Assembly (NCBI GenBank): GCA_965140585.1
Contig: OZ223264.1
Location: 1-64,000 of the forward strand
DNA length: 64,000 bases
DNA from: Spirochaetia bacterium
GTDB taxonomy: Bacteria > Spirochaetota > Spirochaetia > UBA9216
Direction: 5' to 3'
The notes beneath the pieces were generated by a model, which made no database searches, was not told the origin of the DNA, and was given only the letters and a program-made list of their open reading frames with translations. Shown piece by piece: positions 41,211 through 63,049 of the stretch (within the stretch, counting starts at the first letter, position 1; each line of letters opens with the position of its first letter). Made by a program: the position numbers and the translations under genes.

Positions 41211-42848
41211 GTGTTTATGAGCGGGGGAAATTATGTAATAGTCAGCAGAGCGCCGGATCTGGATTACAAAACCGATTATGTAGTCCTTCCAAAAAATTAT
41301 GGAAGCCGGCAGTATTATCAGAGGAAGGATGTAAGTGCAATAATTGATACTGTTGAATCAAATCTTAATGCGCTCAATGAAAAAACTGATTTTGTAAAAA
41401 AAATTCAGGGTCGAAGGGTTATTATCAAGCCGAATTTTGTCGGGGTCTTTCACAAGGTCGGACTGAAGGTTGACGATGTTCCTCAGTCTACAGATCCGCG
41501 GGTTATAGATGCGGTTGTAAAGTATATGAAAAAATATACTGATGATATTATTATAATAGAAGGTTCAGGTGCTCCTGTTTCACGTCTGATGGCTAAAATA
41601 AACGGAACAGACCGTATTGTTAAACGCTACAATATTGAGTTCCAGGCTGTCGAGGAGCTTCCTGTTGATAAATACCTTCTTCCGAAGGCACAGGTAATGA
41701 AGGAAGTATATATTCCCAGGACTTTCAGTGAGATTGTCAGAGGGGAAGCTTTCTACATTTCTCTACCCAAGATGAAAACAAATGCCTATACCGGAGTGAC
41801 CCTCGGGTTTAAAAACGCCATGGGCTGTCTTTCACCGCATATGCGGTATCGAAACCACAATTACAATATTGATAAGAAACTTGTGGATCTTCTCTGGCTT
41901 TTTAAACCGGACCTGACAATTATTGATGGAATTATTGGTGCCGAGGGGAATGTTCCCGGGCCGGTAGATCCGGTGGATGCCCGTCTGATAATTAGCGGTA
42001 CCAACAGCGTCGAAACCGACAGGGTTGCTACAAGGATAATGGGACATGACCCGTCAAAGATCAGACTGATGCAGGAGGCTGACAAACTCGGGTTTAACGA
42101 CCCTGACACTGTTGTTATCGGTGAGCCGGAACCCATTCCCTGGAGGCATGCCGATACAAGTCTTGTTTCAGGCAGGATTGCGGAAAAATTTCCTAATGTC
42201 AGGTTTCTTGTAGGAGCAACAAAGAATACCGCTCCTGAGATTGACAGTATCGATGTTGATATTGAAACTGTGAAGGCTATGGAACAGGCCTGTCCCGGAG
42301 GATGTCTGCCTTCGGTGATTTATAATATGGAGAATTTTCTCTATTACCGCAATCTCAATCCGGAAGATGTAAGGATGACTGTTGTAATCGGAGCCGGTGC
42401 CCTTGTCGACGGCCGCAGGTTCTATTTTGATAAAGACTGTAGGGCGTACTCCGATGAGGATATAAAAGCCCTGGAGGAGCCAGTAGTTGCTGTGGGTTCA
42501 TGTACAAGCCGTCTGAATGGATCTGCAGATTACCAGGTTGAAGGTTGTACCGCCAAGGTCTCAAGAGTTACAGAGGTATTCAATAAAGCAGCAGGCCTGC
42601 CTAATCCGATAACAAGAAGTCTGCTGTCAAATCCTTTAAACATCCCTGTGATTCTTAAGTCTCAGCGGAATCGTAAGAAACTGGCTCTGGCAGGGCATCC
42701 CATGGATGTTGAACTGTGTATTGAGGACAGGGTTTTTGAAGGACGGGCGATTACTGACGATGAAAAAAAGATGGATTATATCCGCTGTGAAATAGAGCCG
42801 CTTACAAAAGAACAGATTAAAAGGCAGTTAAGCTATATAAAACTATAG
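41211..42848 (+). CDS. DUF362 domain-containing Fe-S protein
   Basis: IIKPN, TDP, IEGS, LPKMKT...TLGFKN.MG and IIDGIIGAEG motifs; C-terminal ACPGGC..GSC..GC. Confidence 0.82.
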   Translation: MFMSGGNYVIVSRAPDLDYKTDYVVLPKNYGSRQYYQRKDVSAIIDTVESNLNALNEKTDFVKKIQGRRVIIKPNFVGVFHKVGLKVDDVPQSTDPRVIDAVVKYMKKYTDDIIIIEGSGAPVSRLMAKINGTDRIVKRYNIEFQAVEELPVDKYLLPKAQVMKEVYIPRTFSEIVRGEAFYISLPKMKTNAYTGVTLGFKNAMGCLSPHMRYRNHNYNIDKKLVDLLWLFKPDLTIIDGIIGAEGNVPGPVDPVDARLIISGTNSVETDRVATRIMGHDPSKIRLMQEADKLGFNDPDTVVIGEPEPIPWRHADTSLVSGRIAEKFPNVRFLVGATKNTAPEIDSIDVDIETVKAMEQACPGGCLPSVIYNMENFLYYRNLNPEDVRMTVVIGAGALVDGRRFYFDKDCRAYSDEDIKALEEPVVAVGSCTSRLNGSADYQVEGCTAKVSRVTEVFNKAAGLPNPITRSLLSNPLNIPVILKSQRNRKKLALAGHPMDVELCIEDRVFEGRAITDDEKKMDYIRCEIEPLTKEQIKRQLSYIKL

Positions 42849-42861
42849 AAGAGGGTGTATT

Positions 42862-43134
42862 ATGAATAATCAGTCAGTGAAATATGCATCGGTAATTCTT
42901 ATCTGGGCGGCAGCGCTGCTTCTGTGGATTATCAAAGGGTGGTGGTTTATAACTGCGGCTCTGTTTCTGCTGCATTTTTTTGAAACAGTGTTTACAGGAA
43001 TCAGGACAGGAAAAGAACATGGTCTGAGTCGGGGGTATTCGATTATTATGTCAATGGCCTTCGGTATTGTCTGGTGGAAACCTCTAAATGATGAGTATAA
43101 AAAGAAAAACATTCCGGAGGACTGCGAAGAGTGA
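42862..43134 (+). CDS. Small membrane protein
   Basis: Three hydrophobic segments, LHFFE and FG..WW; overlaps the AOR start. Confidence 0.7.
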   Translation: MNNQSVKYASVILIWAAALLLWIIKGWWFITAALFLLHFFETVFTGIRTGKEHGLSRGYSIIMSMAFGIVWWKPLNDEYKKKNIPEDCEE

Positions 43135-45131
43135 AAGGTTATATAGGAAAAATTCTGGTTGCTGATCTCGGATCAGGTAAATGTGAAATTGAAGCTGTTC
43201 CCGAGAAGGTATATGAAGAGGTTCTCTCGGGAGTAGGCCTTGGTGCCTGGTACCTCTGCAGGAATATTCCGGCCGGTGCAGATCCGCTTGGTCCGCTAAA
43301 TATTCTAGGATTTACATCCGGTCTTCTTACGGGAACAGGCTCTGTCATGACCGGCAGGTGGATGGCAGTCTGCAAATCACCGCTTACCGGTGGATGGGGA
43401 GATTCCAATTGCGGCGGAAATCTGGCACCGGCAATCAAGCAGTGCGGTGTTGATGCAATATTTATCAAGGGGCAGGCGGCCGAACCCGTTTACCTGTATA
43501 TGGATAACCGGGGAGCGGAGATCCGCCCGGCTGCAGACTTTTGGGGGCTTGATGCAATCGAAGCCGAAGAGCGGCTGATAAAGGAAAACTGGAAAAAGAA
43601 GAAGCCGGCTGCTGCCGTAATCGGACCATCTGCTGAAAAGCTGTCGCTGATATCCGGCATATCCAATGACCTTGGTCGGTATGCCGCGCGTTCGGGCGTC
43701 GGTGCTGTAATGGGTTCAAAGAAACTTAAGGCGGTGGTTCTTGCCGGAACCAAGCAGGTTAAGGCAGATAATCCGGAAAAGATTAAGGAACTGAGTAAGG
43801 AGTATTCCCGGAAGGTAAGAAAGATGAACGCGCCCAGCGTATTCACCGGTGCCCTGCTTCCTGTGCTTGGAAAGGTAATGGGCAGCCTGAAAAGTGTTGC
43901 GCCTCTGGATGGAATGCTAACCGCAATGCTTCTTAGAAAATGGGGTACGGTGATGAACAATACACTGGCCGTCATGAATGGTGATGCCCCGATTAAGAAC
44001 TGGTCCGGTTCGGAAAAAGATTATAATTTTAAATACTACAGACAGATCAATCCCGATAAGTTCATTGCCCGTGAGCAGACCAAATATCACTGCTATTCCT
44101 GCATAATCGGCTGCGGGGGAATGTGTTCAATAAAGGATATCAGGGACGGAAAATATTCCCATACCCATAAACCCGAGTATGAAACGGCAATGATGTTCGG
44201 CGGTCTTCTGATGAATAAGGACCGTGATGCAATCTTTTATGCAAACGAACTCTGCAACCGCTACGGTCTTGATACCATTTCAGCGGGAACTGTAATAGCA
44301 TTTGCAATTGAATGTTACGAGAACGGGATTCTCACGGATGAGGATACATACGGTCTGAAACTTAACTGGGGCAGCAGCGATGCCGTCATAAGTCTTCTTG
44401 AAAAAATTGCAAACCGCGAGCCGGGTCTTGGTGATATCCTTGCCGACGGTGTCAAAGCCGCAGCTGAAAAGATAGGTAAGGGTTCTGAAAAATATGCTGT
44501 TCATGCCGGCGGGCAGGAGCTTCCGGCACATGACCCGAAGATTGATCCGATGCTTGCCCAGACCTATGGAATAGATCCGACTCCGGGCCGGCATACTACC
44601 AGCAGCGGCTTGTACTATACTTCCTCATTTCTGTGGCAGTATGTTTCATGGCTTCCCTCATTCAGGCTGTATTCTAAAAGTAAGGAATACATCCCTTCTA
44701 TGGAAGAAACAATGAAAAATGTGGCTTATACATCGTTTAAGATGCTGATCGATGGAACCGGCAGCTGCTATTACGCTATGCTGATGGGTGTCAGGTATTT
44801 CAGAATTTTTGATTTCCTGAATGCTGCAACCGGATGGAACAAGACTCCCGATGAATATATGGAAATAGGAAAGCGGATGCAGAATCTGCGTCAGCTGTTT
44901 AATGCAATACATTCTGTGGATGTTAACAGCTTTAAGCCCCATGCAAGAGTTTACGGGGCGGAGCCTCTTGTAAGCGGACATAATAAAAATATTACGGTTG
45001 ATATTGACGGGATGATTGAACTGTATAAGGAAGCCTGGGGCTGGGATGCTGAAAGCGGATACCCCACTGAAGAAACCGTTAACAAATACGGACTTGAACA
45101 GCTGCTTGATAAGGAGGACCTGTATGCCTGA
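43131..45131 (+). CDS. aor: Aldehyde:ferredoxin oxidoreductase family (tungstopterin) enzyme
   Basis: KSPLTGGWGDSNCGG, ARSGVGAVMGSKKLKA, CYSCIIGC, PEYET, GLDTISAG and GQELPAHDP motifs. Confidence 0.92.
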   Translation: MKGYIGKILVADLGSGKCEIEAVPEKVYEEVLSGVGLGAWYLCRNIPAGADPLGPLNILGFTSGLLTGTGSVMTGRWMAVCKSPLTGGWGDSNCGGNLAPAIKQCGVDAIFIKGQAAEPVYLYMDNRGAEIRPAADFWGLDAIEAEERLIKENWKKKKPAAAVIGPSAEKLSLISGISNDLGRYAARSGVGAVMGSKKLKAVVLAGTKQVKADNPEKIKELSKEYSRKVRKMNAPSVFTGALLPVLGKVMGSLKSVAPLDGMLTAMLLRKWGTVMNNTLAVMNGDAPIKNWSGSEKDYNFKYYRQINPDKFIAREQTKYHCYSCIIGCGGMCSIKDIRDGKYSHTHKPEYETAMMFGGLLMNKDRDAIFYANELCNRYGLDTISAGTVIAFAIECYENGILTDEDTYGLKLNWGSSDAVISLLEKIANREPGLGDILADGVKAAAEKIGKGSEKYAVHAGGQELPAHDPKIDPMLAQTYGIDPTPGRHTTSSGLYYTSSFLWQYVSWLPSFRLYSKSKEYIPSMEETMKNVAYTSFKMLIDGTGSCYYAMLMGVRYFRIFDFLNAATGWNKTPDEYMEIGKRMQNLRQLFNAIHSVDVNSFKPHARVYGAEPLVSGHNKNITVDIDGMIELYKEAWGWDAESGYPTEETVNKYGLEQLLDKEDLYA

Positions 45132-45919: not shown

Positions 45920-46011
45920 GCTTCCTGCAAAACTTTCATAGTTTTGAAATTGTCTTATCTGATCAAACTCTCCGGTTGACTGTCGGATCGTCGGACGGGT
46001 ATACTTACAGA

Positions 46012-46641
46012 ATGATAGACATTTTTCTGAAAGGCGGCGTACTGATGTGGCCGCTTCTTGTAATTTCAGTTATAGCTCTTGCTGTAATTCTTGAGCGTGA
46101 ATATTTCTTTTTTAAAAACCGGGTCAGTGAATCCCAGCTTAACTCTTTAAAGGAGCTTCTTCTTGATGGAAGGGCTGATGAGGCAGAAACACAGACCGGG
46201 CGTTCCGGCCGTGTGCTTCTTGTTTTTCTTAACTCAGTAATTTCAAACCGTAGAAATTCCGTTGAGATTGCCGAAAGGGAAATTTCACTCTCCGGAGAAA
46301 AGATGCTTTTTCAGGCTTCAAGCTTTATTCATGTGCTTGAGCTTATCGGCAGTATTTCTCCCATGATTGGACTTTCAGGTACTGTTGTGGGAATGGTCAG
46401 GGCCTTCCAGCAGATCGGTTTGAATACAGGGTCCCAGATTGACCCATCGCTTCTTGCCGACGGAATATGGGTAGCCATGATAACAACTGTGGCAGGACTA
46501 TTTGTGGCAATTCCCAGTTTCATCTTTGCCCATATAAATAACAGGCGCCTTAGAAAGCTTGAGTTCAATATGAAAATTTATGGAGAAGAGTTTCATTCGA
46601 TTTTGCGTGCAGATGAAAAAAAGGCTGTATTGAATGATTGA
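46012..46641 (+). CDS. exbB: MotA/TolQ/ExbB proton channel protein
   Basis: GGVLMWPL, SPMIGLSGTV.GM and GI..AM.TTVAGL.VAIP motifs; ATG 46012. Confidence 0.9.
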   Translation: MIDIFLKGGVLMWPLLVISVIALAVILEREYFFFKNRVSESQLNSLKELLLDGRADEAETQTGRSGRVLLVFLNSVISNRRNSVEIAEREISLSGEKMLFQASSFIHVLELIGSISPMIGLSGTVVGMVRAFQQIGLNTGSQIDPSLLADGIWVAMITTVAGLFVAIPSFIFAHINNRRLRKLEFNMKIYGEEFHSILRADEKKAVLND

Positions 46642-47050
46642 ATTCAGAGAATTTGATGAATCGTGGAAGTCCCGTACAAGGTTTGAGATGACCCCGATGA
46701 TCGATATGATCTTTCTTCTGCTGATATTTTTTCTCCTGACATCAACTCTCACCAATCCGGTCATTACTGTTGAACTTCCTGAATCTGAAATTGTCGATAC
46801 CAGAATAGAGCAGGATGTTGTGGTTACAGTTGACAGTGAAGGCAGGCTTTTTCTGGATGAGCAGGAGTACAGTAAAGCAGCGCTTGCCGCTGAAATCAAT
46901 TCAATATATCTTGGCCGTGACTCATCGGATATTTTTATCCAGGCTGATGAAAATGTTGACTTTGGAATTATTGTTGAGGTAATGGACATCTGCAGAAAGA
47001 ACGGAGCCTTCGATCTTTCTTTCATTGTAGAAGGAAAGGCTTCTCCCTGA
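46634..47050 (+). CDS. exbD: ExbD/TolR biopolymer transport protein
   Basis: MTPMIDMIFLLLIFF; IQADENV. Confidence 0.92.
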   Translation: MIEFREFDESWKSRTRFEMTPMIDMIFLLLIFFLLTSTLTNPVITVELPESEIVDTRIEQDVVVTVDSEGRLFLDEQEYSKAALAAEINSIYLGRDSSDIFIQADENVDFGIIVEVMDICRKNGAFDLSFIVEGKASP

Positions 47051-47054
47051 AGAA

Positions 47055-47780
47055 ATGAAATCTTCCAGAATTATTCTATTATTTGCTGCAGTCTCAATTG
47101 TAATACACGGACTGGTTTTTCTTGTTAAGATTAGTCCGTCGGAAAGATCTCCAGTGCCGGACTCCGGACATCTGATCCCGGTTGAACTTGCATTTGTTCC
47201 GAAGCAGGCATTGCCTGTACAGGCAGCGCCTCCGGTGACACAAGCTGAGGAACCTCCGGCTGAACCGCCGTCAGCTTCAGAGAAACCAGTGCCTAAAGAG
47301 CCGGTCCGGGAAACTCCGCAACCGGAGCCGGTTAAACAGGAGTCTCAGGAAATGGACCGGGATACGGCTCCGCATCCGGAACAGGAGACGCAGGAATCTT
47401 CCTCTCAACAGCAGGACAGTAGTGATGTTTCTCAGAATTCTGATTCCACTGAAACCCGGGACTCTGCGACTGTCTCAGTCGCTGCGCCGGTGACTCAGGC
47501 AAACCCTGTTGACGGTCTTATGCAGCGTGTTGAAATAAATAAAAGAGGCAGCTATCCTCTTCGTGCAAGGAAGCGGGGCCAGCAGGGGACTGTTATAGTC
47601 TCGCTGATTCTGGATAAGGATGGAAATATGCTCAATGTTGAGATTATCAGAAAATCCAGACACTCTGCACTTAACACTGCGGCGCTTGAGCTGGTTGAAA
47701 AGATTATGGAAACACCTTATCCGCATGGTCTAGATAAAACGGTGAATTTTGAGTTTCCTATTACATTCAGACTTGATTAG
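47055..47780 (+). CDS. tonB: TonB family energy transducer
   Basis: TM with S...H motif, Pro/Glu-rich linker, YP..ARKRGQQGTV and PITFRL. Confidence 0.88.
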   Translation: MKSSRIILLFAAVSIVIHGLVFLVKISPSERSPVPDSGHLIPVELAFVPKQALPVQAAPPVTQAEEPPAEPPSASEKPVPKEPVRETPQPEPVKQESQEMDRDTAPHPEQETQESSSQQQDSSDVSQNSDSTETRDSATVSVAAPVTQANPVDGLMQRVEINKRGSYPLRARKRGQQGTVIVSLILDKDGNMLNVEIIRKSRHSALNTAALELVEKIMETPYPHGLDKTVNFEFPITFRLD

Positions 47781-53908: not shown

Positions 53909-55693
53909 ATGAAAATCTATAATTTACTGTATTCTGATCCTTCCGATTTAATTCCCGTTAAAGAAAAGGTATTAAAACTGCCTTCCGAAAAGGTTTTGAT
54001 CCAGGTTTTTATGGGTACGTCAGAATCTGCAATGGCGGAAAAAATTCTTGAAGAGCTTAAGTCAGACTTTCCCGGATATCCGGTAATCGGGACAAGTACT
54101 TCAGGTGAAATCCTAAACGGTACAGTTTTAAATCATTCAACCGTGATTAGTTTCAGTCTCTTTGATTCAACAATTGTCAGATCGGTACTGATTGACCAGA
54201 ATGATGATATTGCATCTGCCGGTCGGGAAATAGCAGATGTGCTGCGGAACCCTGATTTAAAATCAGTTATAGTTTTCGCCTGCGGAATGAAGGACAATAT
54301 TTATGTTGATCAATCTTCCATTCTAACAAGCCTTGAGTCCGAGCTTGGCCCTATACCGGTTTCCGGAGGACTATCCGGAGGTGTTTTTAAAGAACAGGAA
54401 TCTTTCTTTGTTTTTACAGAAAATGGCTTTTCATTTGGAGGCTTTGCTGCTGCAGGCTTGTCAGGAGAACATCTCAGGGTTCTCTGCGACTACAATGTCA
54501 GCTGGATACCAATCGGAAAACAGATGATGATAACAAAATCCGAGAATAAAAGGGTTTTCAGTATAGATGACAAGAATGTAAAAGAGTTGTATCAACACTA
54601 TCTTGGAATTGATCTTACAGGAGCCTCTTCTACTTTTATGGATAATTTTCCGCTGATGATCAGCCGATACAACCGCTATATTCCCAACCCTGTGTCCAGA
54701 GTCCTTGATGACGGTTCGGTTGAGTTTGTTCATCTGATGAATACCGGTGAAGCCGTCCAGTTCAGTATCTGCGATGTTCATCTTCTTGAATACGGCGCCA
54801 TTGGTTTGAAAAATACTCTTAAAGAATTTAAATCTGAGGCTGTTTTTGTTTTTTCATGTGAATCAAGAAAAAGTATTCTTGGAGATGATATCTACATCGA
54901 TATGAAGGCTCTTAATGGTTCACCGGCGTCAATAGGCTTTTTTACCTATGGTGAATTTCTAAAACCTCATGGAGAACCACCGCAGTTTTTTCAACAGACA
55001 ATGACGGTTCTTGCTCTTTCAGAAAAAGCGAAGGACGCTCCTTCTGAATACTCCGGATTGTATGAACTTATAGAACCAGAGATTCAGGAGTCCGACAGAT
55101 TCAAACTGCAGAAGGTTCTTATCTGTCTTGTAAAATGCATAACCGGTGAGCTTGAAGAACGTAATCAGCAGCTTGATAAAATGGCAAATTCAGATACGCT
55201 TACCGGGCTGGGTAACCGACGAAACTTTGATATGATTTTAAATCATGTAATAAAAACGCAATCCAGGTCAAATGACAGTTTCAGTCTGATTATTTTTGAT
55301 GTTGATTTTTTTAAACTATTCAATGATTATTACGGCCATGTCGAAGGAGATAATGCTCTCAGGGGAATAGGCGCTGTTATGAAGAAAATGCTTAAACGAA
55401 GCAGTGACAAGGCATTTCGTTACGGCGGTGAAGAATTTGCATGTATTCTTTTGTCTACAGATTCAGAAGGAGCCTCTTTAATGGCTGAGAAGATAAGAAA
55501 GAGTATTACGGGCCTCGGAATTCCTCATCAGAGGTCTGGCGTTTCTGATTTTTTATCTGTCAGTCTGGGGGTGCTTACGGTTAATCCTGATAAAAACTCA
55601 GAGGCAGATTCAATAATCAAGCAATGTGATCAGCTTCTTTACAAGGCTAAAGAACAGGGTCGGAACTGTTTTGTTTCAGGAAAAATTAATTAG
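53909..55693 (+). CDS. FIST-domain diguanylate cyclase
   Basis: VIGTSTSGEI, GG, FSCESR and GFFTYGE (FIST); RSSD I-site; GGEEF. Confidence 0.92.
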   Translation: MKIYNLLYSDPSDLIPVKEKVLKLPSEKVLIQVFMGTSESAMAEKILEELKSDFPGYPVIGTSTSGEILNGTVLNHSTVISFSLFDSTIVRSVLIDQNDDIASAGREIADVLRNPDLKSVIVFACGMKDNIYVDQSSILTSLESELGPIPVSGGLSGGVFKEQESFFVFTENGFSFGGFAAAGLSGEHLRVLCDYNVSWIPIGKQMMITKSENKRVFSIDDKNVKELYQHYLGIDLTGASSTFMDNFPLMISRYNRYIPNPVSRVLDDGSVEFVHLMNTGEAVQFSICDVHLLEYGAIGLKNTLKEFKSEAVFVFSCESRKSILGDDIYIDMKALNGSPASIGFFTYGEFLKPHGEPPQFFQQTMTVLALSEKAKDAPSEYSGLYELIEPEIQESDRFKLQKVLICLVKCITGELEERNQQLDKMANSDTLTGLGNRRNFDMILNHVIKTQSRSNDSFSLIIFDVDFFKLFNDYYGHVEGDNALRGIGAVMKKMLKRSSDKAFRYGGEEFACILLSTDSEGASLMAEKIRKSITGLGIPHQRSGVSDFLSVSLGVLTVNPDKNSEADSIIKQCDQLLYKAKEQGRNCFVSGKIN

Positions 55694-56638: not shown

Positions 56639-58444
56639 TTGAAATATTTGATTGCAGCTTTGCCTATTCTTTTTATTTTTACCGTATTTATTCCTGCTCA
56701 GGAAGTTGATGTAACCGGCGCCGGTTACAGAACTTATCTGGATGGTGCCTGGAGCGTGCAGTACGGTGATGTCGTTGAAGATAATAGCTGGGAAGATGTG
56801 GTCTTTCCGAACCTGAAATTCGATTTTCCGGACAATTCCAATCTTTTATGGTTTCTGCGTACCTTTTCTGTTGATGCTTCCATACAGGATGAGCCGCTCG
56901 GTCTGTTTCTGGGAAAGCTTCCGGATTCCTGTGAAGTCTATCTGAATGGTTCTCTTCTTCTCCGCAGCGGCCGGCAGGCTCCGGATGAATATTTCCCCGA
57001 AACATTTACAGCTTTTAGTACAATTCTTCCCTCGGGACTGCTTAAATATGATGAAAGTAATGTTTTGCTTTTGAAGGTTTACAGTGAAAGACACACCGGG
57101 GCACTTCCTTCGATGTTTATTTCAACACCCGGGGATGTTAAAACAAAAACTGTAAAAATTAATACTTTTAATTCCTATCTTGGTCTGACTGCAACAGTCA
57201 TAACTCTGCTGACAGCCTTGTATTTCGGCGTTATGTTTATCATGGACAGAAAGACTATCGGATACTTGTATATGGTGATCGGCTCTCTGGGGTTTTCTAT
57301 TAATTCCGGTATCCTGTATATAACCGGCAGTCCGTTTTCCTACCTGACAATGTTTAAGATTTACATCATAGGGCTCTATTGGGGAATTGCCGGTATTCAG
57401 CTGTTTGTTATGTATCTGGGTGAATTTGATCTTAAGCCAAAATCCAGGATTTTTATACTGGCAGTGACAGCGGCTATATCAATTACTGCCATTCTAATGC
57501 CCAATCTTAGGAGTATTCTCTTTTACAATGATAATATTATCTACTTGATCTGGGTAATTCCCATGCTGATCATTCTTCTTTATGTTACTATCAGGGGCAT
57601 CCGGGAAAATGTAAAATTCATGTACTTCATACTTGGCGGTGCGATTGTTGCAATGATGAGCGGCGGAAGAGATATATTGCTTCTGCAGCTGAACATTGCA
57701 CCGGATTTCTATTCAAATCTTATTGGACTCACTGCTCTTATAGTGAGTATTTTCATAACCTATGCTGCACAATTTAACTATAATGAGAAACTTTTAAGGA
57801 TACAGGCTCATAAACTGGCACAGATGACAGAGAATCTGGAAGGGCTCGTAAAGGATCGGACAGAGGAACTGGAGCATGCATATCAGGAGCTTTCACATCA
57901 GGCTGTTACCGATATGCTTACCGGAACATTCAACCGTCTTGAATACAGCCGGGTACTTGAGAGTGAGAATGCACAGTTCAAGCGGACTGGCCAGAATTAC
58001 GCGGTTATTTATATCGACCTTGATAATTTTAAATATATCAACGATACCTACGGTCACGCTTCCGGTGATTTCGTCCTGCTTGAAATATCAAAACTGCTGA
58101 AAGATTGCAAAAGAAGTTCTGATTTTTTATTCAGGATGGGCGGTGATGAATTCCTGATACTTATGACCAATACCAGCTCCGGAAAGGATGCGATTAACCT
58201 TGTCGATCGTATCTATCAGCAGATCGAGAAAAAAGAATACTTAAGACCTGCCTTATCGAAGTTTACCGGTGAAGAGATAGTTTACCCTGAAGGTAAAAAG
58301 CTTTCACTTACAATCGGTATCAGCTCTACAGATATCTCAAATGTTTCATCTCTGCATGATCTGCCCTTCCAGGCTGATATGGCCCTTCTTGATGCAAAAG
58401 TTTCAGGTAAAAATAGATACGCTTTTTATGAGAAGTCATTATAG
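56639..58444 (+). CDS. Membrane diguanylate cyclase with N-terminal sugar-binding-like domain and 7TM region
   Basis: LDGAW...GD, EVYLNG and NVLLLKV (GH2-type sugar-binding); about 7 TM helices; RSSD; GGDEF. Confidence 0.88.
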   Translation: MKYLIAALPILFIFTVFIPAQEVDVTGAGYRTYLDGAWSVQYGDVVEDNSWEDVVFPNLKFDFPDNSNLLWFLRTFSVDASIQDEPLGLFLGKLPDSCEVYLNGSLLLRSGRQAPDEYFPETFTAFSTILPSGLLKYDESNVLLLKVYSERHTGALPSMFISTPGDVKTKTVKINTFNSYLGLTATVITLLTALYFGVMFIMDRKTIGYLYMVIGSLGFSINSGILYITGSPFSYLTMFKIYIIGLYWGIAGIQLFVMYLGEFDLKPKSRIFILAVTAAISITAILMPNLRSILFYNDNIIYLIWVIPMLIILLYVTIRGIRENVKFMYFILGGAIVAMMSGGRDILLLQLNIAPDFYSNLIGLTALIVSIFITYAAQFNYNEKLLRIQAHKLAQMTENLEGLVKDRTEELEHAYQELSHQAVTDMLTGTFNRLEYSRVLESENAQFKRTGQNYAVIYIDLDNFKYINDTYGHASGDFVLLEISKLLKDCKRSSDFLFRMGGDEFLILMTNTSSGKDAINLVDRIYQQIEKKEYLRPALSKFTGEEIVYPEGKKLSLTIGISSTDISNVSSLHDLPFQADMALLDAKVSGKNRYAFYEKSL

Positions 58445-58454
58445 ATAAATTGAC

Positions 58455-58483
58455 TTGACAATAGTATCACCGGAAAATATTAT
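58455..58483 (+). promoter_or_regulatory. Sigma70 promoter upstream of the Moco/Wco RNA motif
   Basis: TTGACA-N17-TATTAT. Confidence 0.75.
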
Positions 58484-58487
58484 GATT

Positions 58488-58588
58488 CATAACTCCGAAC
58501 CTTTATCTCCTAAAATCCGGAAGGATCATGGGTTGAGGTCGATGGGTTCAACGGGAAACGGTTGTGCCTTCCGTGTTTGAAAAGGAGA
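58488..58588 (+). ncRNA. Moco-class riboswitch candidate lacking P3 (Wco/Tuco variant)
   Basis: ACUCCGA..CCUAA..AUCC-GGAA-GGAU-CAUGG..GGG..CAAC-GGGAAACG-GUUG..GCCUUCCGUGUUUGAAAAGGAG follows the Moco RNA consensus; only 4 nt (CGAU) lie where P3 would be. Confidence 0.82.
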
Positions 58589-58756
58589 AAATAAAAAACT
58601 GATCATGGCTTTAATGACCTGAAAAAAGTTTCTTATTAAATTACTCGAAGAAGGATTGATTAAGTAATCAGATCCTGTTCGGGCAATTCACACCTCTTAT
58701 ACAGATTCAGGAAGACAGGACCGTACTCTCGTAAATTTGAAAAGACGGAGGCTTGA

Positions 58757-60079
58757 ATGTCTGAATATCTCGAATATCTGCCAGAATTGAAAAGCACTAC
58801 ACTCTTTCAGGGAATAGGCGACTCTGAATTAATAGCTCTTCTTGATGCAATGAGACCCGAAATTGTCTGCAGGAAGGCCGGCACAGAAGGTGTACCGCAG
58901 ATAGACTTTGATGAAGGTCTATTCTGTGTTGTGCTCAGGGGGAAGCCTCTTGACAAGCTTGCCCCCCGGCCTGATGTTTACAACATGCCTAAAATAACAG
59001 AACCGGGAATGATGATGGGAGAAATTCCCTGTCTGTCTGAAATGCTGAAAAGTCGGGCTCCAAAAATCAGATTCAGAGGCGGCGGGCATGCAGGGCCCGG
59101 ACATGATGACTTTGATCTTTATATGCTTCGAATGAGCGGAGAGATGATTACTCGCTTTCACGGCATAGAGCATAGTGGTGCACAGGGACGGATGCTGCGG
59201 AATTTTCTCGGTATTCTGGCCCAGAAGGTAACTGATGTCCGAAAAGAGAAAGCTCAGCTGAGTTATGATTATAATAAGGCGCTTTCTCCATACCGACTGA
59301 ATATTCTCTGTGCCGGGGTTTCGCTCAAGCTGGTAAAGCAAACAGCTGATATATGGAATAAAATGCATCCTGAGCTTCCGGCGGTTGTTACTACGGGCAG
59401 TTCTGTAGACATTATCCGTGACTGTATAAGCGGTTATCCCTGCGACCTTCTTGTTTCTGCAGATGATTCCATTATTGAATCGATGCTGATGCCTGATTAT
59501 GTTTCGGGTTACCGAATCTGGGGCGGGAATAAAATGGTCATCTGCGGCGAGGGAATTTCTCCTGACAACTGGATTGACAGGCTTCTGGCTTCCGGGGCTT
59601 CATTTAAGCATAAGGACCCTTACGGAGATCCCGGCGGGTACAGGGCTGTTATGGCTATGCTGCTTGCCGATAAAGTTGAACCTGGACTCTCGGGCAGGTT
59701 GATGAATCATCCCGGCCATATCGGCATGGAGAAAAATCCCGGTCCATTTGGAAATATGAAGCCTGCGGATTATTCGTTTACCTATCTTAGTGCAGCTGTT
59801 TCGATGGGAGTCGACTATACTGAACTGCCCGCAGTTATGGATCTTTCTGATCCTGATCTGGCTTCAGAGTATGCCGAAGTAAGTTTTGCTGTTGATAAAG
59901 ATAATACCGTTACAGCAACACCAATTGCCCACGCATTAGCCATTCCGAAAACTTCACTGCATCTTTCTTCCGCTGCGGAATTTGCTGAACTCTTTCTTAA
60001 TATCGATAAATCTAAACACGGTTTTCTGCTTCGTGAGGGAACAGCCGGAACCGATCCTCTGACATTAAAAAACAGATAA
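58757..60079 (+). CDS. Fusion of Crp-like cNMP/dimerisation domain and WtpA/ModA-like oxyanion-binding domain; no signal peptide, no HTH
   Basis: N-terminus LFQGI..SEL..LL and C-helix MLRNFLGILAQKV (Crp-like); C-terminus GSS..IIR..CDLLVSAD..I..MLMPDY, N.MV and DPYGDPGGYRA (WtpA-like). Confidence 0.7.
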   Translation: MSEYLEYLPELKSTTLFQGIGDSELIALLDAMRPEIVCRKAGTEGVPQIDFDEGLFCVVLRGKPLDKLAPRPDVYNMPKITEPGMMMGEIPCLSEMLKSRAPKIRFRGGGHAGPGHDDFDLYMLRMSGEMITRFHGIEHSGAQGRMLRNFLGILAQKVTDVRKEKAQLSYDYNKALSPYRLNILCAGVSLKLVKQTADIWNKMHPELPAVVTTGSSVDIIRDCISGYPCDLLVSADDSIIESMLMPDYVSGYRIWGGNKMVICGEGISPDNWIDRLLASGASFKHKDPYGDPGGYRAVMAMLLADKVEPGLSGRLMNHPGHIGMEKNPGPFGNMKPADYSFTYLSAAVSMGVDYTELPAVMDLSDPDLASEYAEVSFAVDKDNTVTATPIAHALAIPKTSLHLSSAAEFAELFLNIDKSKHGFLLREGTAGTDPLTLKNR

Positions 60080-60118: not shown

Positions 60119-61210
60119 ATGAATAACTTGAAAAAAATTGTTTTAGCGATTCTTGTCGGTATATGCATTGCAGCATCTCTTCCGGCGGACGACAGAGTTG
60201 TAAACGTCACTGACATGAGCGGTGACTCGGTTACTGTGAAAGGAGAGGTTCGTAAGATAATTAATCTTTGGCCTGCCGGAACTTCTTCATTCTTTGTTAT
60301 GGGGGCCGGTGATCTGATTGTCGGGCTTGCTGTAAACAGCCCGGCTACTATGAACTCCTGGACAAGGCTCTTCTACCCTGAATGTCAGAGTATTCCGGCT
60401 TTGGGCGGTATTACACCTTCTATAGAGGAGCTGATAAAACTTGATCCGGACCTTGTCATCATTCATCCTTCAAGTGCAAAGGCTGGGTTTGCACAGCAGA
60501 TTCGAGATGTCGGTATTCCTGCAATCAATATTAATTTCAGTGATTATAAAACAATGGTTAAGGCATATTCAGTACTTGGGGAAGTTCTTGGAGGCAAATA
60601 TCAGCAGCGGTTGAGCAAATGGTGTTCTGCAGTAGAATCAAAGCTTTCAAATGTAAGATCTCTTACCGCAGGACTTACAGACTCAGAACGTCCTGTAGTT
60701 TACTATGTTGCCGGCCAGACAGATTCATTGACAAAAACAATGCGTTCAGGCAGTATAATTAATGACTGGGTTGAGTCTGCCGGAGGAGTATATGCTTTTG
60801 ACAGGATGGATGTTCCAGGTTCTGATGTTACTCCTGAGGCTGTATTCGCGCTTAATCCTGATGTTATAATTTGCGGCGGTGTATATCAGCATATAGAAAA
60901 AGAACAGATTTCTGTATCTGAAGGCTGGAATGATCTTCGGGCTGCTGTTGATAAACGTGTATATACTAACCCTTACGGCTGTTTCAACTGGGATCGCTTC
61001 GGTCTGGAAAGTCAGCTTCAGATTAACTATGCCCTCTTAAGGATTCAACCAAAAATAGCTGCTGCTAACGGTATATCTGAAGAGTCAGTAATTGAAGAAA
61101 TTATTGATTTTTACAGTACATATACAGGATTTAATCTGAGCCGTGCACAGGCCGAAAATATGTTTAATGGTTTGACCGCTGACGGGTCACCGGAAATGTC
61201 AGCAAGGTAA
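60119..61210 (+). CDS. Class III (FecB/BtuF/MolA-like) ABC substrate-binding protein
   Basis: Signal peptide; VTDMSG..V, SIEELIKLDPDLVI, NPDVII, AV..RVY..P and WDR motifs. Confidence 0.88.
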   Translation: MNNLKKIVLAILVGICIAASLPADDRVVNVTDMSGDSVTVKGEVRKIINLWPAGTSSFFVMGAGDLIVGLAVNSPATMNSWTRLFYPECQSIPALGGITPSIEELIKLDPDLVIIHPSSAKAGFAQQIRDVGIPAININFSDYKTMVKAYSVLGEVLGGKYQQRLSKWCSAVESKLSNVRSLTAGLTDSERPVVYYVAGQTDSLTKTMRSGSIINDWVESAGGVYAFDRMDVPGSDVTPEAVFALNPDVIICGGVYQHIEKEQISVSEGWNDLRAAVDKRVYTNPYGCFNWDRFGLESQLQINYALLRIQPKIAAANGISEESVIEEIIDFYSTYTGFNLSRAQAENMFNGLTADGSPEMSAR

Positions 61211-61217
61211 GACTGCT

Positions 61218-62282
61218 TTGACAGATTTAAATTCTGAAAATAAAACTGATCACTCCGCTGCGGGCAGGGTGATCAGTTTCCCTTTTTCATGGATTTTTAT
61301 ACTTTCTCTTCTTGTCCTTTTTATGATGTTTACATTTTCCCTGGCTGTCGGTCGCTACAGTATTCCGGTTGATTATACTCTGCGTATTCTTTTTTCAAAG
61401 ATAATTGATGTAAACAGGATATGGACAGATATTCAGGAGGCGGTTGTTCTTAATCTTAGACTTCCCAGAACTGTTGCCGCCGTAGTAATCGGTGCGGCTT
61501 TATCACTCTCCGGTGCAGCCTACCAGAGTATTTTTAAAAACCCCATGGTATCACCCGATCTCCTGGGAGTTTCTTCCGGTGCCTGTGTGGGAGCTGCACT
61601 TGCAATTCTGTTAAATGCCGGGAATGCAGTTATTCAGCTCAGTGCCTTTACAGGGGGCTTAATTGCTGTAGGAATTACAGTTTCTATTCCAGCACTTATC
61701 CGGAGCAATTCAACCACGGTTCTAGTTCTCTCCGGTATTGTTATCAGCAGTCTAATGTCTTCAATTATGAGTATAATAAAATTTGTAGCTGATACAGATA
61801 CCCAGCTTGCAGAGATAACCTACTGGCTGATGGGCTCTTTTGCTTCTATAAAATTTAAACAGATGCTGCCTGTTCTTCCAACTATTATTATCCCTGCATC
61901 GGTCGTGCTGCTGATGCGGTACAGGCTGAATATTCTTTCTCTAGGTGATAAGGAAGCGAAATCTCTTGGTGTAAATCTTGGTATTACAAGGGGAATCTTC
62001 ATCCTGTGTTCAACTCTTTTAACGGCCGGCTGCGTTTGCTTATCGGGGACTATTGGCTGGGTCGGTCTCGTGATACCTCACACAGCAAGAATGATCATCG
62101 GATCGGATAACAAGAAAATGCTGCCTGTAGCAATGACCTGCGGAGCTGTTTTCATGCTGGTAATTGATATTCTCTGCAGAACAATTACTTCGGCCGAATT
62201 AAGGCTTGGAATTTTAACAGGAATAATCGGTGCTCCGTTTTTTATCTTTATTTTGTTTAAGCAGAAGGACCAGGTAAAATGA
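61218..62282 (+). CDS. FecCD/BtuC/MolB-type ABC permease
   Basis: LRLPR, FKNPMVSPDLLGVSSGA, WLMGS, IGWVGLVIPH and IIGAPFF motifs. Confidence 0.93.
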   Translation: MTDLNSENKTDHSAAGRVISFPFSWIFILSLLVLFMMFTFSLAVGRYSIPVDYTLRILFSKIIDVNRIWTDIQEAVVLNLRLPRTVAAVVIGAALSLSGAAYQSIFKNPMVSPDLLGVSSGACVGAALAILLNAGNAVIQLSAFTGGLIAVGITVSIPALIRSNSTTVLVLSGIVISSLMSSIMSIIKFVADTDTQLAEITYWLMGSFASIKFKQMLPVLPTIIIPASVVLLMRYRLNILSLGDKEAKSLGVNLGITRGIFILCSTLLTAGCVCLSGTIGWVGLVIPHTARMIIGSDNKKMLPVAMTCGAVFMLVIDILCRTITSAELRLGILTGIIGAPFFIFILFKQKDQVK

Positions 62283-63049
62283 TTCTTGAAGTAGATGATC
62301 TAAGTTACCGCTATCATAACAGCAGTAATGTTTTTAATGGTGTAAGTTTCTCACTTGATAAGGGCGAGGTCCTTTCGATCCTCGGAGTGAATGGTGCAGG
62401 GAAATCAACCCTGCTGAATTGTATAGGAAACCTTTTTAGACCTGCAACGGGAGAAATCAGGTTAAACGGAAAACTTATGTCTTCGATGCATACAAGAGAT
62501 ATAGCCCGTGTTATTGGTTATGTTCCGCAGAGCCATACTGCGGTATATGGATACAGCGTTAGAGAGTACGTTGTTATGGGAAGGACTCCGTTCATAGGTG
62601 CTTTTGCTGTTCCGGGAAGAGATGATTACAGGATTGCGGATGAAGCGCTTGAAAAAATGGAAATTAAACATTTGGGAAAAAAACTGTATACAGAAATATC
62701 CGGAGGTGAAAGGCAGCAGGTTATGATTGCAAAAATTTTCGCTCAGCAGCCTCAGCTTATTCTTCTTGATGAGCCTACAGCCCACCTGGATTACGGAAAC
62801 CAGCACCGTGTTGTCGAAATGATCCGTAATCTTGCCGGAGAAGGATATGCGATGATAATGACCACTCACAATCCGGAGCATGCGTTTATTCTTGATGGGA
62901 AGGTAGCTATTCTGAACAGGTCCGGTGTTCTGTGTGTTGGTGATTCCGGAGAGACCCTTACCACCGAAATTCTTTCAAGCCTTTATTCGCTGCCGATAAA
63001 AACCAAATATGATGAAGATGCAAAAAGAAATATCTGTGTAGTCTGCTAA
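62279..63049 (+). CDS. ABC transporter ATP-binding protein (FecE/MolC-type)
   Basis: GVNGAGKST, ISGGERQ, LLDEPT and TTH motifs. Confidence 0.95.
   Translation: MILEVDDLSYRYHNSSNVFNGVSFSLDKGEVLSILGVNGAGKSTLLNCIGNLFRPATGEIRLNGKLMSSMHTRDIARVIGYVPQSHTAVYGYSVREYVVMGRTPFIGAFAVPGRDDYRIADEALEKMEIKHLGKKLYTEISGGERQQVMIAKIFAQQPQLILLDEPTAHLDYGNQHRVVEMIRNLAGEGYAMIMTTHNPEHAFILDGKVAILNRSGVLCVGDSGETLTTEILSSLYSLPIKTKYDEDAKRNICVVC

Follow-up and report, generated by a model that had tools for sequence, protein, structure and literature searches.

A Crp-like domain fused to a leaderless WtpA-like domain: a candidate intracellular tungstate-handling partner of a riboswitch-associated type II importer

What might a WtpA-like oxyanion-binding domain do in a bacterium when it has no export signal and is joined to a Crp-like domain that has no helix-turn-helix (HTH)? 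The question is raised by an open reading frame (ORF) at 58757..60079 (+ strand, ATG start, 440 aa) in positions 1 to 64,000 of contig OZ223264.1 (GenBank assembly GCA_965140585.1, a Spirochaetia bacterium of lineage UBA9216), the whole of which stretch is hereafter called the window. Judging from sequence and its context, the encoded fusion protein probably handles tungstate inside the cell. More specifically, it may serve, in the cytoplasm, as a fourth component of a MolBC-A-like type II ATP-binding cassette (ABC) importer whose expression would be regulated by the tungsten cofactor, a reading to which we give slightly under an even chance.

The predicted protein falls into three parts, namely a Crp/Fnr-type effector barrel resembling cyclic nucleotide monophosphate (cNMP)-binding domains (residues 1-136; 58757..59164, +), a long C-helix that joins both domains (residues 137-179; 59165..59293, +), and a WtpA/ModA-type oxyanion-binding domain without an export signal (residues 180-440 plus the stop codon; 59294..60079, +). 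In the full-length AlphaFold model (predicted local distance difference test score, pLDDT, 91.5; predicted template modeling score, pTM, 0.77), DSSP assignment indicated that the helix 137-179 passes directly into the strand 181-186 of the binding domain. The initial annotation had described a Crp-like domain lacking an HTH joined to a leaderless WtpA-like domain, and Pfam, the structural models and the structure searches together confirmed that this architecture is real; the motifs that it quoted are all present in the translation (GSS at residues 214-216, SAD at 234-236 and DPYGDPGGYR at 287-296), and MLRNFLGILAQKV corresponds to residues 146-158. In Pfam only PF13531 was matched, with no TOBE, PF12727 PBP_like or HTH match. 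The translation carries no leader peptide, and the first helix of the Crp fold opens the protein. Stand-alone members of the same binding-domain family likewise start 1-2 residues ahead of the first strand of the domain, whereas the haloarchaeal WtpA relatives recovered in the same scan have twin-arginine or lipobox leaders, and we therefore infer a cytoplasmic location. An exported receptor was rejected on the same grounds.

The binding domain is related most closely to the archaeal tungstate and molybdate receptors. Pfam assigned SBP_bac_11 to residues 181-411 (E 7e-9), and a PDB sequence search at E<=1 gave eight matches, seven of them archaeal ModA/WtpA; a profile built from 51 family sequences improved the best PDB match to E 6e-48. 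Using the full-length model as a Foldseek query, the ten best matches were all archaeal ModA/WtpA (E 5e-21 to 3.5e-17, target TM-score 0.64-0.74), followed by bacterial ModA at ~1e-11. In HMMER alignments to Archaeoglobus fulgidus WtpA, D291 falls opposite chain index 125, the second Asp in the D-D-P-x-G-Y-R motif, and E325 falls opposite chain index 190. This mapping combines our own indexing of the alignment with A. fulgidus numbering, in which we take index 125 to be Asp153 and index 190 to be Glu218, the two numbers agreeing with a single offset of 28. The distance from E325 to the invariant Y343 is 18 residues, equal to the Glu-Tyr spacing in the A. fulgidus chain and, presumably, to that of the Val152-Tyr170 pair of ModA. 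Across the 51-sequence family alignment, D291, S216, Y295 and Y343 are each found in 51/51 sequences, and position 325 is acidic (D or E) in 48/51, with S in two and A in one. The distorted octahedral W/Mo site of WtpA is attributed to an Asp/Glu pair, exemplified by Asp160/Glu218 of Pyrococcus furiosus (PMC4139814), and Asp/Glu carboxylates are likewise given as the basis of octahedral W/Mo binding by WtpA (PMC11350598). By alignment, then, both WtpA carboxylate ligands are kept in the binding domain of the fusion protein.

The N-terminal domain is far more divergent. Residues 1-179 gave no Pfam match at E<=0.1, including none to PF00027 or HTH_Crp_2, and a 34-sequence profile of the domain reached a best E of only 0.039 against the PDB, although all five matches were cNMP-domain proteins. 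Searched against 1.84 billion representatives, this profile recovered just 61 proteins at E<=1e-3. The structural evidence is clearer. An AlphaFold2 model of residues 1-174 (pLDDT 85, pTM 0.79) matched only Crp/Fnr or cNMP proteins in Foldseek (best E 2e-3, TM ~0.5), and VIA-align, which is independent of Foldseek and was run over 48,161 chains, returned the cNMP/Crp fold in 50/50 among the matches listed. The best VIA-align match was the HcpR sensor domain (Z 10.2, root-mean-square deviation 3.1 Å, 132 residues aligned), and the Crp/Fnr relatives HcpR, GlxR, CAP and CooA spanned Z 10.2 to 5.4. In addition, the distant homologue P0152 carries a weak Crp-type HTH after its N-domain, which is related to the N-domain family at an hhalign probability of 98.5%. 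On the strength of these structure matches and of this HTH-bearing relative, the N-domain is a divergent branch of the Crp/Fnr effector domains. The phosphate-cassette arginine is not conserved in the 51-sequence alignment, positions 95-99 being variable, and a Met-rich motif, Y-x-M-P ... E-P-G-M-x-M-x-E-I-P-x-L-S, stands instead and is invariant or nearly so. VIA-align superposed helix 137-179 on the dimerization helix of Crp/Fnr proteins, and if the analogy with Crp holds, it would provide a dimer interface. The N-domain also occurs in another setting: P0138 (748 aa) and P0141 (707 aa) have an N-terminal NTP_transf_5 nucleotidyltransferase domain and the Crp-like N-domain at the C-terminus, which in this class is 39% identical to that of the window over 173 residues.

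The pairing of the two domains recurs widely. A search of 5.8 billion proteins gave 180 relatives at E<=1e-3 among 8000 candidates scored; 120 clusters were listed, and among these 120 matches 87 are full length (>=95% of the query, 43-100% identity). A scan of species-representative genomes confirmed 130 relatives, from which 79 distinct loci were retained. The relatives belong to Spirochaetia, several families of Clostridia, Dehalococcoidales, Atribacterota, termite-gut Deltaproteobacteria (Adiutrix) and one Mangrovibacter. The initial annotation had entertained a one-off deletion chimera without full-length homologues; such homologues exist in dozens of species, and together with the many-species loci and the recurring domain pair they rule this origin out. 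The two domains also occur in permuted C-to-N fusions (P0112, P0114 and P0142) and as adjacent separate genes, with N-domain ORFs of 170-175 aa (L036, L038, L039 and L040). N-domains are found in tandem (P0121 and P0122), and two extra stand-alone N-domain genes occur in L023 and L051. The C-domain exists alone as well (P0098, P0118 and L030-L035), and C-domain-only genes were found beside FecCD- or ModABC-type importers. Longer fused forms of 771-2200 aa were not found, which is weak evidence as a negative. The ESM Atlas has no entry for the N-domain of the window, and a search of it with homologue P0014 yielded nothing beyond the cluster of P0014 itself and generic SBP_bac_11 clusters; no description of the architecture was found in openly licensed PMC papers and bioRxiv, supplements excluded.

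The regulatory context of the gene points to the tungsten cofactor. A molybdenum/tungsten cofactor (Moco/Wco) riboswitch aptamer of family RF01055 lies at 58481..58603 (+), 154 nt upstream of the start codon, and matches the full model (1-135). Its score of 70.6 bits (E 1.9e-15) exceeds the gathering score of 36; the P3 positions are deleted in its alignment, and the P3 stem is thus absent. P3-less forms of the Moco riboswitch are described as tracking tungsten-cofactor genes (Regulski et al., 2008), and following that description the absence of P3 places the aptamer in the proposed tungsten-cofactor class. Between 40000 and 64000 of the window, no further riboswitch was found beyond that at 58481. 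A sigma-70-like promoter, TTGACA-17 nt-TATTAT with 11/12 consensus positions, can be drawn at 58455..58483 (+), and it is a pattern match only, given that the region holds 6 consensus sites against 10.2 expected from shuffled sequences. Just upstream of this promoter are two genes for GGDEF diguanylate cyclases (53909-55693 and 56639-58444), one of the proteins being FIST-type and the other having a multi-pass membrane domain.

Downstream of the fusion gene, the operon continues with the components of an importer. These are an exported cluster-A substrate-binding protein with a hydrophobic leader (60119..61210, +; Pfam Peripla_BP_2), a FecCD-type, that is type II, ABC permease resembling MolB (61218..62282, +; FecCD E 1e-85) and a MolC-like ABC ATPase of 256 aa (62279..63049, +; ABC_tran), in which Pfam found no TOBE match and no C-terminal regulatory domain. 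The gaps from fusion gene to binding protein, permease and ATPase genes are 39, 7 and -4 nt, and the order reads promoter, P3-less riboswitch, fusion gene, exported binding protein, permease and ATPase. Among solved structures, the best relative of the permease is HI1471 (MolB) with 226 bits, ahead of HmuU (174) and BtuC (154), and that of the ATPase is HI1470 (MolC) with 157 bits, the next scoring 125. The exported binding protein found its best PDB match in 4ovk (4e-19), and its best matches are uncharacterised. Both the riboswitch and the type II nature of this ABC system had been missed in the initial annotation.

The host genome contains eight AFOR_C matches and three PF00384 matches, and six RF01055 elements (C9:526535, C1:58481, C7:210541(-), C3:56352, C6:700013 and C9:227357), five of which lack P3. 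The sole P3-bearing element has a 45-nt insert and precedes a Tup-like transporter followed by moeA, moeA-PBP_like, moaA and moaC, and a P3-less one precedes a pair of ferredoxin and aldehyde ferredoxin oxidoreductase (AOR) genes. A second riboswitch-controlled type II importer (Peripla_BP_2, FecCD and ATPase) is encoded at C3:56352-60197 (L095), and its fourth gene is DUF364/DUF4213 in place of the Crp-WtpA fusion; the host therefore has two different cytoplasmic accessories in the same operon position. The riboswitch, the MolBC-like importer and the eight genes of the AOR family are each consistent with a role in tungsten use.

Several further observations were made in this genome. At C7:209102-210666 on the minus strand (L097), a P3-less riboswitch stands directly before a gene whose product is an aldehyde dehydrogenase of the NAD type (Aldedh, E 1e-171). 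Should binding of the cofactor switch this element off, a shortage of tungsten cofactor for the AORs would lead to production of an enzyme that does not need tungsten. An unusual cluster at C9:526535-531533 (L094) has a P3-less riboswitch followed by an SBP_bac_8 protein, a lipoprotein-like Oxidored_molyb protein and a 669-aa double permease. The best AFOR_C match of the genome (497 bits), at C6:1539-2675 near the start of its contig, contains one in-frame TAA. Within the window itself, 41211-45131 encodes a DUF362 protein (545 aa) and then an AOR-family protein (AFOR_N/AFOR_C), and ExbB/ExbD/TonB genes lie at 45976-47780; no TonB-dependent receptor was found among the window ORFs scanned.

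Among loci encoding both domains, 32 of 36 have at least one type II importer gene on the same strand within 6.5 kb, and 26 of the 36 have all three importer genes; the fusion gene may come first or last relative to them, both orders occurring. Among the 18 closest loci (L001-L018), a riboswitch reaches the gathering score in seven, scores 28-35 bits at the same upstream position in eight (sub-gathering matches, E 1e-4 to 0.015) and was not found in three, and in L022 an RF01055 element precedes the first importer gene. In L023, L025, L027, L028, L036 and L038-L040 the riboswitch was searched at the gathering score only. Among other neighbours, the MoeA gene of L048 overlaps with an N-domain gene that stands alone, L019 has MoeA-PBP_like nearby, L023 has AOR with ferredoxin nearby, L017 has an MFS_MOT1 gene after the operon, and a TonB-dependent receptor with ExbB/ExbD/TonB is part of the cluster in L040. 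C-domain-only genes stand beside ModABC-type transporters and DUF364 in L034 and L035, and S-adenosylmethionine (SAM) methyltransferases adjoin or are fused to C-domains in L032, L041, L043, L045 and L046.

Three of these contexts deserve description in their own right. First, a divergent Moco-like element of 28-36 bits, at or just under the gathering score, occurs ~80 nt upstream of the fusion gene in Clostridia and Atribacterota (L002, L003, L006, L008, L010, L012-L014 and L016-L018), and its P4 region appears shortened in a structurally poor MAFFT alignment of L010, L013 and L018 only. Second, leaderless WtpA-like domains fused or adjacent to class I SAM methyltransferases (L045:7992-9632, L046:7321-8985, L044, L032:8750-9664, L041 and L043) are 38-58% identical to the C-domain of the window, several of them lying beside FecCD-type importers. 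Third, the sole enterobacterial copy of the fusion, in Mangrovibacter yixingensis (L025:3083-9320, 46% identity), immediately follows pstS-pstC-pstA-pstB-phoU, in a locus that lacks a nearby type II importer.

How these observations might combine into a function can be laid out as follows. When the tungsten cofactor is scarce, the riboswitch would permit expression of the operon, and the importer would bring in tungsten either as tungstate or as a tungstate-releasing complex. The leaderless WtpA-like domain would then capture the oxyanion in the cytoplasm with high affinity, and the captured tungsten would be held for MoeA-type insertion and kept apart from abundant molybdate. The Crp-like domain would dimerize the protein through its C-helix and may gate capture or release via a second ligand. 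In sum, the protein would act in the cytoplasm as a dimeric acceptor or chaperone, capturing tungstate delivered by the importer for cofactor synthesis, which is our preferred reading at close to, though not quite, even confidence. It is favored because the operon would be on at low cofactor and the C-domain alone keeps the importer context, and because the neighbours (MoeA, DUF364 and methyltransferases) point to steps after transport. A more elaborate form, in which a ligand-gated intracellular tungstate chaperone docks on both the type II importer and MoeA to make a dedicated uptake-to-insertion channel, with a six-coordinate WtpA-type site giving selectivity for W over Mo and the Crp-like domain gating the hand-over by a pterin or nucleotide intermediate, seems to us unlikely.

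A number of results weigh against the acceptor reading and its tungsten ligand. The NCBIfam WtpA model TIGR03730 matched the binding domain with E 5e-29 and 101.3 bits, below the equivalog cut-off of 242.75 bits; the domain has ~30 residues fewer than archaeal WtpA between the two aligned blocks; and H321 and H392 are invariant or nearly so, and H318 nearly so, among the 51 family sequences. Because of the low WtpA score, the ~30-residue gap and the family His residues, the ligand specificity may differ from that of WtpA. On the side of the importer, the exported binding protein matches MolA (3psa) weakly (8e-7) and over residues 30-140 only, and the importer is not nearby in four of the 36 two-domain loci (L011, L019, L023 and L025). 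Searches at E<=0.1 detected no riboswitch in L007, L011, L015, L019, L021, L026, L029, L031 and L033. The fusion gene of Mangrovibacter follows pstSCAB-phoU, the MoeA link rests on single loci, and the methyltransferase links of close C-domain relatives (L032, L045 and L046) are unexplained by a simple hand-over of tungstate.

The main rival is inhibition of the importer in trans. In that case the WtpA-like domain would sense cytoplasmic tungstate, and the dimer would dock on the ATPase dimer and stop import, doing in trans what the TOBE-type regulatory domains carried by some type I ATPases (ModC and MetN) do in cis. The 256-aa ATPase without a regulatory domain of its own and the tight synteny with the importer (32/36 loci) are what such an inhibitor would lead one to expect, and the C-helix of the Crp-like domain hints at a two-fold dimer, as would suit an ATPase dimer. 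However, the riboswitch would already shut the operon when cofactor is plentiful, the C-domain-only forms keep the importer context without the proposed dimerization module, and the links to MoeA, MOT1, DUF364 and methyltransferases point downstream of transport. Taken together, we consider trans-inhibition unlikely, if well worth keeping in view beside the acceptor reading.

The next explanation concerns the cargo. Chelates are the usual cargo of type II importers that use cluster-A binding proteins, and the importer might accordingly take up chelator-bound W or Mo, with enzymes in the cytoplasm (in other genomes, DUF364 proteins or methyltransferases) processing the chelator and the WtpA-like domain accepting the freed oxyanion. 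The TonB-dependent receptor with ExbB/ExbD/TonB in L040, the methyltransferase or DUF364 genes adjoining C-domain genes in L032, L034, L035, L041, L043, L045 and L046, and the exported binding protein, whose best solved relatives are uncharacterised rather than MolA, would all suit such a pathway. Yet no processing enzyme is encoded in the operon of the window, the permease and ATPase are closest to MolBC, an importer of small oxyanions, and no tungsten chelator is known for these organisms, so that we regard this route as quite unlikely.

A signal-transducing sensor, in which the Crp-like domain is an output or input module acting on some other partner, the oxyanion only modulates it, and neither transport nor cofactor synthesis is served directly, draws on the wider N-domain family: the Crp-type HTH member P0152, the NTP_transf_5 fusions P0138 and P0141, the many stand-alone or tandem N-domain copies, and the two extra stand-alone genes of L023 and L051. 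The protein of the window, in contrast, has no DNA-binding or enzymatic output domain, and the C-domain alone keeps the same genomic context, which makes this role improbable. Least probable of all, and in our view very doubtful, is that the ligand is phosphate, sulfate, or an oxyanion of arsenic, selenium or vanadium with only an indirect tungsten context, since the sub-threshold WtpA score, the pstSCAB-phoU neighbours in Mangrovibacter and an analogy between methyltransferase fusions and metalloid methylation are set against two conserved carboxylates, a six-coordination that suits W/Mo and not P or S oxyanions, the riboswitch, the likeness to MolBC and the MOT1/MoeA/AOR neighbours.

If the acceptor reading holds, it would bear on how a cell, once uptake is complete, directs tungstate to the pterin cofactor and leaves molybdate aside, the former being scarce and the latter abundant, a step for which the intracellular tungstate players known to us are TOBE-type stores and a few regulators. 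The analysis defines a conserved candidate for it, a leaderless WtpA-type binder with a portable Crp-like module, encoded with a MolBC-like importer under a riboswitch of the proposed tungsten-cofactor class. It also suggests that type II ABC importers may give anaerobes a fourth and widespread way of taking up tungsten, in addition to Mod, Tup and Wtp.

Compared with known systems, the fusion protein shares with the archaeal WtpA/ModA proteins (A. fulgidus 2onr/3cij, Methanocaldococcus jannaschii 3cfz and P. furiosus 3cg1) the class II binding-protein fold, the GxS, xAD and D-P-x-G-Y-R motifs and, by alignment, both carboxylate ligands; unlike archaeal WtpA, it has no export signal, carries a Crp-like partner domain and is associated with a type II transporter rather than type I ModBC/WtpBC. 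The permease and ATPase of the window are nearest to those of MolBC-A, the type II molybdate/tungstate importer of Haemophilus influenzae (HI1470/HI1471/HI1472), with which the use of a cluster-A binding protein is also shared, and we know of no cytoplasmic fourth component of MolBC-A. With the Crp/Fnr regulators HcpR, GlxR, CAP and CooA the protein has in common the effector barrel and the C-helix, but it has neither an HTH nor the arginine of the cNMP cassette.

Cytoplasmic Mo/W binders as such are already known, and what is new here is the architecture of a WtpA-type domain with a Crp-like partner. Mop/Tub, TaoR and MoeA-PBP_like proteins are intracellular and bind, or are predicted to bind, W/Mo for storage, regulation or insertion, whereas the fusion protein uses an SBP_bac_11/WtpA-type domain and a Crp-like partner instead. 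Tub is described as a cytoplasmic TOBE-type tungstate binder, and the initial annotation had held that the cytoplasmic Mo/W sensors use TOBE domains; this proved too narrow, as TaoR is reported to combine HTH and PBP-like domains (PMC11980592) and the host genome itself encodes a MoeA-PBP_like fusion. TunR, too, probably carries a PBP-like domain. Finally, DUF364/DUF4213 is described as an uncharacterised cytoplasmic accessory encoded in molybdate/tungstate ABC operons, with a fold made up of enolase-N-like and Rossmann-like parts (PMC2954201). The fusion protein occupies a similar accessory position in Mo/W importer operons, but its fold is unrelated.

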